Below are positions 22,564 to 31,617 of a DNA stretch of 64,000 nt, one piece after another (position 1 is the first letter of the stretch; every line of letters starts with the position of its first letter). Source of the DNA: Escherichia coli (lineage in GTDB: Bacteria > Pseudomonadota > Gammaproteobacteria > Enterobacterales > Enterobacteriaceae); NCBI RefSeq assembly GCF_003334765.1, contig NZ_QOWT01000011.1, one strand, 5' to 3'. A model generated the notes under the pieces. That model saw nothing but the letters and a program-made list of their open reading frames with translations. It searched no databases and was not told the origin of the DNA. A program made the position numbers and the translations under genes.

Positions 22564-23733
<1,170 letters not shown>

Positions 23734-25398: not shown

Positions 25399-25992
25399 AT
25401 GACTTCTCTGTATTTAGCTTCCGGTTCTCCGCGTCGTCAGGAGTTACTTGCGCAACTTGGCGTGACCTTTGAACGTATTGTTACGGGCATTGAGGAGCAG
25501 CGTCAGCCGCAGGAGAGCGCGCAGCAGTATGTTGTGCGTCTGGCGCGCGAGAAAGCACGGGCAGGTGTCGCGCAAACGGCGAAGGATCTCCCGGTGCTGG
25601 GTGCGGATACTATCGTTATCCTGAACGGAGAAGTGCTGGAGAAACCGCGCGACGCAGAGCATGCGGCGCAGATGTTGCGCAAATTATCGGGTCAGACCCA
25701 TCAGGTGATGACAGCAGTGGCGTTGGCCGACAGCCAGCACATTCTCGATTGCCTGGTGGTCACCGATGTGACTTTCAGAACGTTAACAGACGAAGACATC
25801 GCGGGCTATGTCGCCAGCGATGAACCGTTAGATAAAGCAGGTGCATACGGTATTCAGGGGCTGGGTGGCTGTTTTGTCAGGAAGATAAATGGCAGCTATC
25901 ACGCCGTAGTCGGCTTACCGCTGGTTGAAACGTATGAATTATTAAGTAATTTTAACGCACTGCGTGAGAAAAGGGATAAACATGACGGCTGA
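25399..25992 (+). CDS. yhdE: Maf-like nucleoside triphosphate pyrophosphatase
   Basis: Start placed at [17 protein letters not shown] (197 aa); Maf family. Confidence 0.9.
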
Positions 25993-27451
25993 ATTGTTAG
26001 TAAACGTAACGCCTTCGGAAACGCGAGTGGCGTATATTGATGGCGGTATTCTGCAGGAAATTCATATTGAACGTGAGGCGCGACGCGGAATAGTAGGCAA
26101 TATCTACAAGGGTCGTGTAAGTCGTGTACTTCCGGGTATGCAGGCGGCTTTTGTAGATATTGGGCTGGATAAAGCCGCGTTTCTTCATGCATCCGACATC
26201 ATGCCGCACACCGAATGTGTGGCGGGTGAAGAACAAAAGCAATTCACGGTGCGCGACATCTCGGAACTGGTTCGTCAGGGGCAAGATCTGATGGTGCAGG
26301 TGGTGAAAGATCCGCTTGGCACTAAAGGTGCGCGCCTGACCACCGATATCACGCTCCCTTCTCGCTATCTGGTGTTTATGCCAGGGGCTTCTCACGTTGG
26401 GGTTTCCCAACGTATTGAAAGCGAATCAGAACGTGAACGCCTGAAAAAAGTGGTCGCAGAGTATTGCGACGAGCAGGGCGGGTTTATCATCCGTACCGCA
26501 GCGGAAGGGGTTGGCGAGGCTGAACTGGCCTCCGATGCCGCTTATCTGAAACGCGTCTGGACCAAAGTTATGGAGCGTAAAAAACGCCCGCAGACCCGTT
26601 ATCAGCTGTACGGCGAACTGGCGCTGGCGCAGCGTGTTCTGCGTGATTTCGCCGATGCCGAACTGGACCGCATTCGCGTTGACTCACGCCTGACTTACGA
26701 AGCGTTACTTGAGTTCACCTCGGAGTACATTCCCGAGATGACAAGCAAGCTGGAGCATTACACAGGACGCCAGCCGATTTTCGATCTCTTTGATGTCGAA
26801 AACGAAATCCAGCGAGCGCTGGAACGCAAAGTAGAACTGAAATCCGGTGGTTATCTCATTATCGACCAGACCGAAGCGATGACCACCGTGGACATCAATA
26901 CCGGAGCGTTTGTCGGTCATCGCAATCTGGACGACACCATTTTCAATACCAATATTGAAGCGACGCAGGCTATCGCTCGCCAGTTACGGTTGCGTAATCT
27001 GGGCGGGATTATCATTATTGATTTCATCGATATGAATAATGAAGATCACCGCCGCCGAGTGCTGCACTCGCTGGAGCAGGCGTTGAGCAAAGACCGGGTG
27101 AAAACCAGCGTTAATGGTTTTTCGGCGCTGGGGCTGGTGGAGATGACGCGTAAACGCACCCGCGAAAGCATTGAGCACGTACTGTGTAACGAATGCCCAA
27201 CCTGCCACGGTCGCGGAACGGTGAAAACCGTGGAAACGGTATGCTATGAAATCATGCGCGAGATTGTTCGTGTCCACCATGCTTACGACTCCGACCGTTT
27301 CCTGGTCTATGCTTCTCCGGCAGTAGCTGAAGCCTTGAAAGGCGAAGAGTCACACTCGCTGGCGGAAGTGGAAATTTTCGTTGGCAAACAGGTTAAAGTA
27401 CAAATTGAACCGCTCTATAACCAGGAGCAGTTTGACGTCGTAATGATGTAA
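25982..27451 (+). CDS. rng: Ribonuclease G
   Basis: Start placed at [22 protein letters not shown] (489 aa); S1 domain plus RNase E/G catalytic core; overlaps yhdE by 11 nt. Confidence 0.95.
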
Positions 27452-27518
27452 ACAGATGCTGGGCCGCCATCCGGCAAAGGGTTTTTGAGTCACATTTTTA
27501 GCAGACAAGGAGTGACGG

Positions 27519-30500
27519 GTGAGGCGATTGCCGGGGATTTTACTGCTTACTGGAGCCGCGCTCGTTGTGATCGCTGCCCTGCTGGTTAGCGGCCTGCGTA
27601 TTGCTTTACCGCATCTTGACGCCTGGCGTCCGGAAATCCTCAACAAAATAGAATCCGCGACTGGCATGCCGGTAGAAGCCAGTCAGCTCTCAGCCAGCTG
27701 GCAGAATTTTGGCCCGACGCTTGAAGCACACGACATCCGTGCAGAACTAAAAGATGGCGGCGAATTTTCGGTTAAACGCGTTACTCTGGCGCTGGATGTC
27801 TGGCAGAGCCTGTTACATATGCGCTGGCAGTTTCGCGACCTCACTTTCTGGCAGCTGCGCTTTCGCACCAACACTCCTATCACCAGCGGTGGTAGTGATG
27901 ACAGTCTGGAAGCCAGTCACATCAGCGATCTGTTTCTTCGTCAATTTGACCATTTCGATCTTCGCGACAGTGAAGTCAGTTTCCTGACGCCATCCGGTCA
28001 GCGCGCCGAGCTGGCGATCCCACAACTCACCTGGCTGAACGATCCACGTCGACACCGTGCGGAAGGCCTGGTAAGCCTCTCCAGCCTTACCGGACAGCAC
28101 GGCGTGATGCAGGTGCGCATGGATTTGCGCGATGATGAGGGGTTGTTAAGCAATGGTCGCGTCTGGCTCCAGGCGGATGACATCGACCTGAAGCCGTGGC
28201 TCGGTAAATGGATGCAGGACAATATTGCGCTGGAAACGGCACAGTTCTCCCTTGAAGGCTGGATGACGATCGACAAAGGCGATGTAACCGGCGGTGACGT
28301 CTGGCTGAAACAGGGCGGTGCCAGCTGGTTGGGCGAGAAGCAAACGCATACGCTGTCGGTGGATAATCTGACCGCGCATATTACGCGTGAAAATCCGGGC
28401 TGGCAGTTCTCTATTCCCGATACACGGATCACGATGGACGGCAAACCCTGGCCGAGCGGAGCATTGACGCTGGCCTGGATACCGGAACAGGACGTTGGCG
28501 GCAAAGACAATAAACGCAGTGACGAACTCCGGATTCGCGCCAGTAATCTGGAGCTGGCAGGCCTGGAGGGCATACGCCCGCTGGCCGCGAAACTTTCACC
28601 TGCACTGGGTGATGTTTGGCGCTCCACACAACCGAGCGGCAAGATTAACACTCTGGCGCTGGATATCCCGCTTCAGGCGGCAGACAAGACCCGTTTTCAG
28701 GCATCGTGGAGCGATCTGGCCTGGAAGCAATGGAAATTATTACCGGGTGCGGAACACTTCTCCGGGACGCTTTCCGGCAGCGTTGAAAATGGTTTGCTTA
28801 CCGCGTCGATGAAGCAGGCAAAGATGCCTTACGAAACGGTATTCCGTGCGCCACTAGAAATCGCCGACGGCCAGGCAACTATAAGCTGGCTGAACAATAA
28901 CAAAGGTTTCCAGCTGGATGGGCGTAATATTGACGTTAAAGCCAAAGCCGTCCATGCGCGCGGCGGTTTTCGTTACCTGCAACCTGCTAACGATGAACCC
29001 TGGCTGGGTATTCTGGCTGGCATCAGTACCGATGATGGTTCACAAGCCTGGCGCTATTTCCCGGAAAACTTGATGGGTAAAGACCTGGTTGATTACTTAA
29101 GTGGCGCGATTCAGGGCGGTGAAGCGGATAACGCGACGCTGGTTTATGGTGGCAATCCGCAACTCTTCCCCTATAAACACAACGAAGGTCAGTTTGAAGT
29201 GCTGGTGCCGCTGCGCAACGCGAAGTTTGCCTTCCAGCCGGACTGGCCTGCATTAACTAACCTTGATATTGAACTGGACTTTATTAACGACGGTTTATGG
29301 ATGAAAACCGATGGCGTTAATCTGGGCGGCGTGCGCGCGAGTAATCTTACCGCAGTGATCCCTGACTACTCAAAAGAAAAACTGCTGATTGACGCTGACA
29401 TTAAAGGTCCGGGTAAAGCCGTTGGCCCTTACTTTGATGAGACACCGCTGAAAGATTCTCTGGGTGCGACCCTGCAAGAACTCCAGCTCGACGGCGATGT
29501 GAATGCTCGCTTACATCTTGATATCCCGCTGAACGGCGAACTGGTAACCGCGAAAGGTGAAGTGACGCTGCGTAATAACAGTCTGTTTATCAAACCACTC
29601 GACAGCACCCTGAAAAATTTGAGCGGTAAATTCAGCTTTATCAATAGCGATCTGCAAAGTGAACCACTGACAGCAAGCTGGTTTAATCAGCCGTTGAACG
29701 TGGATTTTTCCACCAAAGAAGGGGCAAAAGCCTACCAGGTAGCGGTAAACCTCAACGGTAACTGGCAACCGGCGAAAACCGGCGTTCTGCCTGAAGCGGT
29801 GAACGAAGCATTGAGTGGCAGCGTGGCGTGGGATGGTAAAGTGGGCATTGATCTGCCTTATCATGCTGGTGCGACCTATAACATAGAGCTGAACGGCGAT
29901 CTAAAGAATGTGAGCAGTCACTTACCTTCACCGTTAGCCAAACCTGCGGGTGAACCACTAGCGGTAAACGTTAAGGTTGATGGCAATCTCAACAGCTTTG
30001 AATTAACCGGACAGGCTGGTGCGGATAATCATTTCAATAGCCGCTGGTTGCTCGGTCAAAAGCTGACGCTCGATCGTGCTATTTGGGCGGCAGACAGTAA
30101 AACGCTCCCGCCGTTGCCGGAACAAAGTGGCGTTGAACTCAATATGCCGCCGATGAATGGTGCCGAGTGGCTGGCCCTGTTCCAGAAAGGCGCTGCGGAG
30201 AGTGTCGGTGGTGCAGCGAGTTTCCCACAACACATAACGTTACGTACGCCTATGTTGTCACTGGGAAATCAGCAATGGAATAACCTGAGTATTGTTTCGC
30301 AACCGACGGCAAATGGCACCCTGGTTGAAGCGCAAGGGCGTGAAATCAACGCCACGCTAGCGATGCGTAATAACGCGCCGTGGCTGGCGAATATCAAATA
30401 TCTTTATTACAACCCGAGCGTGGCGAAAACTCGTGGTGATTCAACGCCGTCATCACCTTTCCCGACAACGGAGCGCATTAACTTCCGTGGCTGGCCGGAC

Positions 30501-31319
30501 GCCCAAATACGATGCACAGAGTGCTGGTTCTGGGGGCAAAAATTCGGTCGCATTGACAGTGATATCACCATTTCTGGCGATACGTTAACGCTGACCAATG
30601 GACTGATTGATACTGGTTTCTCGCGGCTTACTGCCGATGGTGAATGGGTTAATAATCCGGGGAATGAACGTACCTCGCTGAAAGGAAAACTGCGCGGGCA
30701 GAAAATTGATGCCGCCGCAGAATTTTTTGGTGTCACGACGCCCATACGCCAGTCGTCATTTAATGTGGATTACGATTTACACTGGCGCAAAGCACCCTGG
30801 CAGCCAGATGAAGCGACGTTGAATGGCATCATTCATACTCAACTGGGTAAAGGCGAAATTACCGAAATCAATACCGGACATGCCGGGCAATTGCTGCGCT
30901 TATTGAGCGTAGATGCCCTGATGCGTAAGCTGCGTTTTGATTTCAGAGACACTTTTGGCGAAGGGTTCTATTTTGACTCCATTCGCAGCACCGCGTGGAT
31001 TAAAGACGGCGTTATGCACACCGACGACACGCTGGTGGATGGCCTGGAGGCGGATATCGCCATGAAAGGGTCGGTAAATCTGGTACGTCGCGACCTGAAT
31101 ATGGAAGCGGTTGTCGCACCAGAGATTTCTGCGACGGTGGGCGTGGCTGCGGCTTTTGCGGTTAACCCCATTGTTGGCGCGGCAGTGTTTGCCGCCAGTA
31201 AAGTGCTGGGGCCGCTGTGGAGCAAAGTCTCCATTTTGCGCTATCACATTTCGGGTCCGCTGGACGATCCGCAAATCAACGAAGTGTTGCGCCAACCGCG
31301 TAAAGAAAAAGCGCAATGA
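27519..31319 (+). CDS. yhdP: Large AsmA-like inner-membrane-anchored periplasmic protein
   Basis: 1266 aa ORF with GTG start, N-terminal TM anchor (LPGILLLTGAALVVIAALLV) and long beta-rich body. Confidence 0.92.
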   Translation: MRRLPGILLLTGAALVVIAALLVSGLRIALPHLDAWRPEILNKIESATGMPVEASQLSASWQNFGPTLEAHDIRAELKDGGEFSVKRVTLALDVWQSLLHMRWQFRDLTFWQLRFRTNTPITSGGSDDSLEASHISDLFLRQFDHFDLRDSEVSFLTPSGQRAELAIPQLTWLNDPRRHRAEGLVSLSSLTGQHGVMQVRMDLRDDEGLLSNGRVWLQADDIDLKPWLGKWMQDNIALETAQFSLEGWMTIDKGDVTGGDVWLKQGGASWLGEKQTHTLSVDNLTAHITRENPGWQFSIPDTRITMDGKPWPSGALTLAWIPEQDVGGKDNKRSDELRIRASNLELAGLEGIRPLAAKLSPALGDVWRSTQPSGKINTLALDIPLQAADKTRFQASWSDLAWKQWKLLPGAEHFSGTLSGSVENGLLTASMKQAKMPYETVFRAPLEIADGQATISWLNNNKGFQLDGRNIDVKAKAVHARGGFRYLQPANDEPWLGILAGISTDDGSQAWRYFPENLMGKDLVDYLSGAIQGGEADNATLVYGGNPQLFPYKHNEGQFEVLVPLRNAKFAFQPDWPALTNLDIELDFINDGLWMKTDGVNLGGVRASNLTAVIPDYSKEKLLIDADIKGPGKAVGPYFDETPLKDSLGATLQELQLDGDVNARLHLDIPLNGELVTAKGEVTLRNNSLFIKPLDSTLKNLSGKFSFINSDLQSEPLTASWFNQPLNVDFSTKEGAKAYQVAVNLNGNWQPAKTGVLPEAVNEALSGSVAWDGKVGIDLPYHAGATYNIELNGDLKNVSSHLPSPLAKPAGEPLAVNVKVDGNLNSFELTGQAGADNHFNSRWLLGQKLTLDRAIWAADSKTLPPLPEQSGVELNMPPMNGAEWLALFQKGAAESVGGAASFPQHITLRTPMLSLGNQQWNNLSIVSQPTANGTLVEAQGREINATLAMRNNAPWLANIKYLYYNPSVAKTRGDSTPSSPFPTTERINFRGWPDAQIRCTECWFWGQKFGRIDSDITISGDTLTLTNGLIDTGFSRLTADGEWVNNPGNERTSLKGKLRGQKIDAAAEFFGVTTPIRQSSFNVDYDLHWRKAPWQPDEATLNGIIHTQLGKGEITEINTGHAGQLLRLLSVDALMRKLRFDFRDTFGEGFYFDSIRSTAWIKDGVMHTDDTLVDGLEADIAMKGSVNLVRRDLNMEAVVAPEISATVGVAAAFAVNPIVGAAVFAASKVLGPLWSKVSILRYHISGPLDDPQINEVLRQPRKEKAQ

Positions 31320-31379
31320 TTTGACGAGGGCGCGTAATTGCCCCAATCTCATAGGATAATCGTTGCCAAAGGCCAACGA

Positions 31380-31617
31380 GCCAGAACATAACCGTAGGTC
31401 GGATAGGGCGTTCACGCCGCATCCGGCAGCCGTTGCCTGATGCGACGCTGTGCGTCTTATCAGGCCTACAAACGGAACATAACCGTAGGTCGGATAAGGC
31501 GTTTACGCCGCATCCGACAGCCGTTGCCTGATGCGACGCTGTGCGTCTTATCAGGCCTACAAACCGGAACATAACCGTAGGCTGGATAGGGCGTTCACGC
31601 CGCATCCGGCAGCCGTA
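31380..31617. repeat. Cluster of about 2.5 tandem REP/BIME units (period about 91 bp)
   Basis: Repeated ...aacataaccgtaggtcggatagggcgttcacgccgcatccggcagccgttgcctgatgcgacgctgtgcgtcttatcaggcctacaaa... between yhdP and tldD. Confidence 0.9.

Follow-up and report, generated by a model that had tools for sequence, protein, structure and literature searches.

The GTG-initiated gene yhdP, a putative phospholipid bridge, and its conserved setting in Escherichia coli

We analyzed a 64,000-nt stretch of Escherichia coli DNA, hereafter the window, in which a reading frame of 1266 codons followed by a TGA stop begins at a GTG codon, as read from the list of open reading frames and their translations. The RefSeq annotation places this frame co-oriented downstream of mreB-mreC-mreD-yhdE-rng, confirming the gene order given in the original prediction. 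The features at the locus are the following:

25982..27451, + strand: rng (RNase G), the upstream neighbour, from the RefSeq annotation.
27452..27518, + strand: the 67 nt between rng and yhdP, containing a weak hairpin and a T-run (27457-27486).
27507..27512, + strand: Shine-Dalgarno sequence AAGGAG, read in the sequence, 6 nt before the GTG.
27513..27515, + strand: in-frame TGA, read in the sequence, two codons before the start.
27519..27521, + strand: GTG initiation codon, the earliest start-type codon downstream of the in-frame stop, also assigned from conservation.
27519..31319, + strand: yhdP coding sequence, from the reading-frame list, translation, RefSeq and the models NF008148, TIGR02099 and PF13116.
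27537..27593, + strand: N-terminal transmembrane anchor, codons 7-25, ILLLTGAALVVIAALLVSG, from Kyte-Doolittle hydropathy, the model helix and the literature.
27663..31115, + strand: beta-rich periplasmic body with a repeating beta-groove or 'beta-taco', codons 49-1199.
31137..31193, + strand: second hydrophobic segment (C-terminal helix), codons 1207-1225, Kyte-Doolittle mean 1.99.

The reading frame is the known and well-studied gene yhdP. Its coordinates match RefSeq yhdP (WP_001253618.1, K-12 MG1655 record) exactly, its DNA is 100% identical to that of K-12 yhdP (b4472), with the protein, start, stop and neighbours all the same, and every one of the 5,426 complete E. coli genomes searched contains yhdP. 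Family models gave full-length matches above their curated cutoffs: NCBIfam NF008148 scored 2170.5 bits (cutoff 1512) over residues 1-1266 of 1266, and the equivalog model TIGR02099 scored 1521.1 bits (cutoff 519) over residues 2-1262, while Pfam PF13116 matched YhdP end to end, with model positions 1-1224 spread across two halves. A word-indexed protein search with YhdP returned at least 120 entries, those listed all being near-identical proteins of E. coli and Shigella. Among 6499 representative relatives the majority are 1250-1400 aa long and align from their own N-termini. The name YhdP is thus borne out by annotation, family models, structure prediction and literature, and the 1266-aa frame from the GTG at 27519 by the reading-frame list and the RefSeq coordinates; the original prediction was correct but, apart from the conservation of the GTG described below, ordinary. 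Between yhdP and tldD, the window carries a REP array with one 91-bp unit fewer than in NZ_CP032667.1. Matches to naRNA4 (Rfam) downstream of yhdP were rejected as a specific sRNA gene, being units of this ordinary REP/BIME array. The characterised REP325 is located elsewhere, between yjdM and yjdN.

The TGA at 27513-27515 excludes a longer N-terminal extension in E. coli, and the GTG is therefore the earliest possible start of the frame. To compare this start across species, we took loci from a scan of genome contigs and a search of representative proteins. We found a GTG at the aligned start position in 78 of 79 Enterobacteriaceae loci (one per species) and, as called, in 6 of 7 distant orthologs, and it persists in orthologs of 23-45% identity. 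The first base of the start codon was an invariant G in all 73 full-length orthologs, whereas none of 28 neutral control sites with A or G at the third base was invariant. The motif CAAGGAG lies upstream of yhdP in 79/79 related loci, and the Shine-Dalgarno columns are 80-99% conserved, compared with a mean of 54% further upstream. Residues 1-4 (V/M-R-R-L) are conserved in 78/79 species, and the three-base codon periodicity of the yhdP alignment begins exactly at the GTG. Judged from these alignments, the GTG start of yhdP appears unusually strongly conserved, more so than neutral sites.

It is very hard to credit that initiation takes place at a downstream in-frame codon, with the GTG annotated by mere convention. 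Such codons exist, namely TTG (codon 4, 27528), GTG (codon 17, 27567) and ATG (codon 50, 27666), and gene callers assign 1263-1279 aa in a few E. coli entries. An N-terminal peptide for the GTG start was not found in the literature searched, and the E. coli TetRP supplement has no entry for yhdP. However, the alternatives are at least 15 nt away from the AAGGAG, compared with 6 nt for the GTG, the transmembrane anchor at residues 7-25 would be shortened or lost with a start at codon 17 or 50, the conserved residues 1-4 and the codon periodicity count from the GTG, and the TIGR02099 alignment already begins at residue 2. In addition, 9 of 10 residue labels in published crosslinking work fit numbering from this GTG, the tenth being off by one, and a Shigella proteogenomic study relocated the start of yhdP to an upstream GTG, with a supporting peptide that maps to residues 107-114. 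The GTG at 27519, as originally predicted, is thus well supported by the upstream stop, the Shine-Dalgarno sequence at -6 and its presence in 78/79 loci.

The protein has the architecture of its family, whose members are anchored by a single N-terminal transmembrane helix and measure about 1250-1300 residues. Hydropathy peaks at residues 7-25 (Kyte-Doolittle mean 2.59), which fall inside helix 4-48 of an AlphaFold2 model; in the literature, the N-terminal helix of YhdP is described as an inner-membrane anchor. The single N-terminal anchor of the original prediction was therefore confirmed as a helix, but the second hydrophobic segment, at residues 1207-1225, had gone unmentioned. This segment lies beyond the AlphaFold2 model, which covers residues 1-1199 only (pLDDT 87.9), and inside 'Chelix_1' (residues 1202-1238), which Cooper et al. 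found to insert into the bilayer in simulations (PMC10592960). After the N-terminal helix, the model has 59 beta strands of at least 5 residues, with 56% of residues 1-1199 in strands, in line with the beta-rich body that had been proposed. The strands form a long stack arranged as an open groove ('beta-taco' repeats) that follows a Chorein-N-like N-terminal module, and the top structural match of the model, which carries out the structure prediction suggested at the outset, is a eukaryotic bridge-like lipid-transfer protein. Hydrophobic/polar alternation within the strands exceeds that of shuffles (z = 5.2), a proxy for the lining rather than groove coordinates, and Cooper et al. describe a continuous lipophilic groove (PMC10592960). 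There is no solved YhdP structure, and searches of the PDB with the single sequence and with the family profile matched no chain.

Taken together, we are close to certain that the feature is K-12 yhdP, encoding a GTG-started, inner-membrane-anchored groove protein that would carry phospholipid in parallel to TamB and YdbH. The proposed phospholipid-transport role is supported by family, structure prediction and literature, and the suggested checks of the groove and of the genetics with tamB and ydbH have already been published (PMC10592960, PMC8593681, PMC8912898). Negative-stain EM showed rods of ~250 Å (PMC10592960), in vivo Bpa crosslinking to 32P-labelled molecules occurred at groove-facing but not at outward-facing residues (PMC10592960), and yhdP, tamB and ydbH are redundantly essential, or synthetically lethal (PMC8593681, PMC8912898). 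We propose that the strong AAGGAG would direct initiation at the GTG, giving the 1266-residue protein, and that residues 7-25 would hold it in the inner membrane. [quoted passage not shown] TamB and YdbH work in parallel with YhdP: any one of the three suffices for growth, and losing all three is lethal. In this scheme we infer the direct lipid flux through YhdP, its driving force and the docking at the outer membrane.

In the older framing, YhdP is not the conduit but modulates phospholipid flow or the function of cyclic ECA (PMC6083912, 10.1101/2020.08.09.213157), and the protein could accordingly affect the barrier indirectly, for example through cyclic ECA regulation or by modulating another transporter. 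This is consistent with the finding that ECA loss suppresses the sensitivity to vancomycin and SDS-EDTA caused by deleting yhdP and with the co-occurrence of YhdP with the ECA operon (PMC6083912), and an earlier preprint has YhdP 'modulating the rate' of phospholipid flow (10.1101/2020.08.09.213157); a reconstituted transport assay for YhdP was not found in the literature searched. However, we consider an indirect role improbable, given the crosslinks to phosphate-containing molecules on the groove-facing side, the resemblance of the fold to bridge-like lipid transfer proteins, and the report that the paralog TamB passes lipids via its groove (10.1101/2025.03.12.642747). A further reading concerns the position of the gene, since yhdP behind mreBCD-yhdE-rng might reflect a functional and spatial link between MreB-directed growth of the side wall and the supply of lipid to the outer membrane. 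Wherever an Enterobacteriaceae locus had enough flanking sequence, rng preceded yhdP in the same orientation (74/74 loci), as it did in 6 of 7 distant loci. We found tldD downstream in 72/72 Enterobacteriaceae loci, so that yhdP occupies the orthologous position between rng and tldD, an order also seen in distant orthologs. The same 74 loci show the longer order mreB-mreC-mreD-maf-rng-yhdP, as do orthologs of 23-45% identity, in which rng and yhdP are separated by 16-24 nt or overlap by 4 nt, and E. coli has no clear promoter or strong terminator between the two genes. Despite this deep conservation, which upholds part of the envelope-biogenesis coupling that was originally suggested, the link to MreB fits poorly: polar enrichment has been reported for YhdP, TamB and YdbH, along with binding of YhdP to the division protein DedD, whereas MreB acts along the side wall. 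Moreover, co-transcription alone can maintain a conserved order, the intervening maf/yhdE (nucleotide pyrophosphatase) and rng (RNase) are not envelope genes, and the YhdP literature searched makes no mention of such a link to mreB, rng or an operon. We therefore regard this coupling as unlikely.

The coding sequence of rng, stop included, runs to 27451, and the terminator-like pattern in the spacer consists of 7 pairs, 2 of them G-T, in a region whose folding does not exceed that of shuffled sequence (z = +0.84). The spacer measures 28-129 nt in other Enterobacteriaceae and 1-24 nt, or a 4-nt overlap (GTGA), in distant orthologs. We rejected the hairpin at 27457-27476 as a strong rng terminator that isolates yhdP, as it is weak, folds like shuffled sequence and lies in an unconserved spacer; partial termination may occur there. 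A search of the + strand at 26800-27519 found no sigma-70-like promoter, and a literature search for a yhdE-rng-yhdP operon found no paper. We tentatively suggest, as a possibility rather than an expectation, that selection actively keeps the weak GTG and the place right behind rng, which together would serve as a fixed low-expression set-point, maybe translationally coupled to rng, for a very large membrane-bridging protein that could do harm in excess. The invariant G (73/73, against 0/28 neutral sites) and the GTG in the 23-45% identity orthologs are in keeping with this idea, and we found no paper that discusses it for yhdP.

[quoted passage not shown] This much is already in the literature, and finding the gene again in a K-12 window adds nothing there. 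The analysis makes a small comparative addition, in that the GTG, the Shine-Dalgarno sequence and the order mreBCD-maf-rng-yhdP-tldD are conserved far beyond Escherichia, and this could be used to test what fixes the dosage of YhdP.

Among known systems, the E. coli AsmA-like paralogs TamB and YdbH share with YhdP the N-terminal inner-membrane helix, the Chorein-N-like start, the long beta-groove body and the redundant essential role in supplying outer-membrane phospholipid. TamB has nevertheless diverged so far that sequence and profile searches from YhdP do not reach its solved chains. TamB is encoded beside its outer-membrane partner TamA, and YdbH beside YnbE, whereas no such partner is known for YhdP; a cold sensitivity with fadR that is specific to YhdP, unlike TamB and YdbH, points to a different substrate preference. 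The fold of YhdP also matches the eukaryotic bridge-like proteins BLTP1/LPD-3, VPS13 and ATG2, yet at a sequence identity of 7-12%. These proteins bridge organelle contact sites, whereas YhdP would bridge the periplasm, and BLTP1, a far larger protein, works with partner subunits of its own.

The long reading frame picked out by the original prediction, with its coordinates and GTG start, is present in the sequence as described there. The features around its start are:

27507-27512, + strand, Shine-Dalgarno sequence AAGGAG, six bases before the GTG, read from the sequence
27513-27515, in-frame TGA just upstream of the GTG
27519-31319, + strand, yhdP, 1266 codons with GTG as the first codon (ORF list of the window)

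Neither the gene nor its function is new. Searched against 5,426 complete E. coli genomes, a 4.2-kb piece spanning the ORF matched every one of them, with 100% identity to K-12 MG1655 and further strains, and the RefSeq K-12 record has yhdP at exactly the same coordinates (product 'AsmA2 domain-containing protein YhdP', WP_001253618.1), with csrD, mreB, mreC, mreD, yhdE and rng upstream, in that order, and tldD downstream. NCBIfam model NF008148 matches residues 1-1266 of 1266 (2170 bits, cutoff 1512), the equivalog TIGR02099 scores 1521 bits (cutoff 519), and Pfam PF13116 (YhdP) spans the protein end to end. At E ≤ 0.001 the family is very large, with 6,499 cluster representatives, and its best matches are mostly 1250-1400 residues long. 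Elsewhere in the window, the mechanical ORF list extends mreB (22615-23733) to a TTG start and 372 aa; the RefSeq product has 347 aa (CDS at about 22690-23733, by offset from the K-12 record), and we rejected the longer form as an artefact of choosing the first start-type codon. At positions 1-351 the window opens inside a 5S rRNA that lacks its 5' end, followed by a tRNA and a further 5S rRNA in full; this is the end of an rRNA operon whose 5S gene is duplicated.

Because of the TGA, no start codon of this frame can lie further upstream than the GTG. We compared 80 loci, drawn from contigs of one genome per species in genera that include Escherichia, Citrobacter, Salmonella, Enterobacter, Klebsiella, Kluyvera and Cedecea, with 67-100% identity across the first 400 residues. 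GTG stands at the aligned first codon in 78 of the 79 loci covering residue 1, with CAAGGAG directly upstream in all 79; the single exception is a metagenome contig in which a one-base insertion leaves TTG in frame. Three-base periodicity in column conservation begins exactly at the GTG, with mean top-base frequencies of 0.90, 0.97 and 0.68 at codon positions 1, 2 and 3, against 0.54 farther upstream. The downstream candidates (TTG at codon 4, GTG at codon 17, ATG at codon 50) were rejected, as they lie too far from the Shine-Dalgarno sequence or would truncate or delete the membrane anchor. As a neutrality control, we took 28 alignment columns in which all of 73 full-length orthologs share Lys, Glu or Gln: the A/G third base varies in every one of the 28 (mean top frequency 0.75), and the start-codon G was kept in 73/73. 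The starts of rng and tldD are ATG in 74/74 loci each. Among seven distant orthologs placed on their contigs (23-45% identity), GTG is the called start in six, and the seventh has an in-frame GTG at the homologous position, two codons upstream of its called start. The only experimental start-site evidence that we found in the literature is a Shigella flexneri proteogenomic study in which the yhdP start was shifted upstream to GTG on peptide evidence; the supporting peptide maps to residues 107-114 and shows translation of the N-terminal region without fixing the first residue. No yhdP entry was found in a tetracycline ribosome-profiling supplement. The predicted GTG start is thus borne out by its place in the frame, its Shine-Dalgarno sequence, its conservation and the onset of periodicity, and this comparative proof, drawn from aligned sequences, is a modest addition.

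Annotation, family models, structure prediction and literature likewise support the AsmA-like interpretation of yhdP. A single membrane anchor had been predicted; the N-terminal segment is there (residues 7-25, one strong transmembrane segment, mean hydropathy 2.59), but residues 1207-1225 form another, weaker hydrophobic segment (mean 1.99) that had been overlooked, and this C-terminal helix is a modest addition. We modelled residues 1-1199 from an alignment with 89 homologs (21-44% identity; mean pLDDT 87.9) and obtained a helix at 4-48 followed by a nearly continuous run of beta strands, 59 of them at least 5 residues long and 56% of residues in strands, in agreement with the proposed long beta-rich body. 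Hydrophobic/polar alternation inside strands exceeds that of shuffled strands (z = 5.2, measured on the residue pattern), as would be expected of a sheet with one greasy face. The suggested checks had previously been performed by others: Cooper et al. (PMC10592960) described an AlphaFold model with 60 strands and a continuous hydrophobic groove, saw rods of about 250 Å in negative stain, and reported that the C-terminal helices at residues 1120-1145 and 1202-1238 are essential. Their in vivo Bpa crosslinks to 32P-labelled molecules formed where residues face the groove and not where they face outward. Of ten residue labels in that study, nine agree with a translation numbered from the GTG, and the tenth, R663, is R664. 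Ruiz et al. (PMC8593681) and Douglass et al. covered the genetic check, synthetic lethality with tamB and ydbH, Rai et al. (PMC11226057) gave genetic evidence that substrate preference differs between YhdP and TamB, and Mitchell et al. (PMC6083912) tied cyclic enterobacterial common antigen to yhdP phenotypes.

The original prediction also hinted at envelope coupling through mreBCD, and here gene order is deeply kept. In Enterobacteriaceae, the gene next upstream of yhdP, in the same orientation, is rng in 74/74 loci with enough flank, and tldD follows downstream in 72/72. The order mreB-mreC-mreD-maf-rng-yhdP is complete in orthologs of 45%, 30% and 23% identity, and a 38%-identity ortholog has it without a called maf between mreD and rng. 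In these four loci rng and yhdP are 16-24 nt apart or overlap by 4 nt, and on two short contigs rng ends immediately before yhdP. The rng stop overlaps the yhdP GTG (GTGA) in distant locus L090 (5001-5004) or lies within 1-16 nt of it (L088, about 300-312; L082, 4985-5000), which suggests that the two genes are translationally coupled outside Enterobacteriaceae. The E. coli spacer, which has widened to 67 nt, contains a weak hairpin with a T-run and nothing more, folding no better than shuffled sequence; since the hairpin is weak and a search of the + strand over 26800-27519 gave no sigma-70-like promoter, read-through from rng into yhdP is plausible. In a reduced-genome ortholog (L087, about 1.2 Mb) the rng/mre context is lost, and yhdP still has GTG and AAGGAG; the 2.6 kb upstream of it (2352-5000) has no called gene, with bamE beyond, in rng's place, and may represent decayed mre/rng genes. 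These comparisons indicate that the GTG start and the place behind rng have been maintained far outside Escherichia, a modest addition; that the two fix a low YhdP dosage is a further reading, which we consider less likely than not. The mreBCD-rng neighbourhood is not discussed in the three YhdP papers searched for it. A simple spatial link between YhdP and MreB is disfavoured, because a recent preprint found YhdP, TamB and YdbH concentrated at the cell poles and DedD bound by YhdP; the hint holds only in part.

The spacer between yhdP and tldD (31370-31616) has a 91-bp REP/BIME unit in 2.7 tandem copies, two of which pass the Rfam gathering score:

31397-31466, match to naRNA4 (RF02564)
31488-31557, match to naRNA4 (RF02564)

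The characterised source of naRNA4 is REP325, at another place, between yjdM and yjdN. The array is exactly one 91-bp unit shorter than in the 'MG1655' record NZ_CP032667.1; the number of copies therefore differs between K-12-like genomes. A 2026 preprint proposed for arrays of this type a stabilising effect on the mRNA upstream and attenuation of the gene downstream; if this holds, the array here would act on yhdP and tldD. Distant orthologs of 23-30% identity have a nitrilase-family gene (CN_hydrolase) in the yhdP-tldD interval that overlaps or abuts its two neighbours (L085, 9008-9826; L086, 8534-9352; L090, 8827-9654), whereas the E. coli interval has no such gene and carries the REP array instead.
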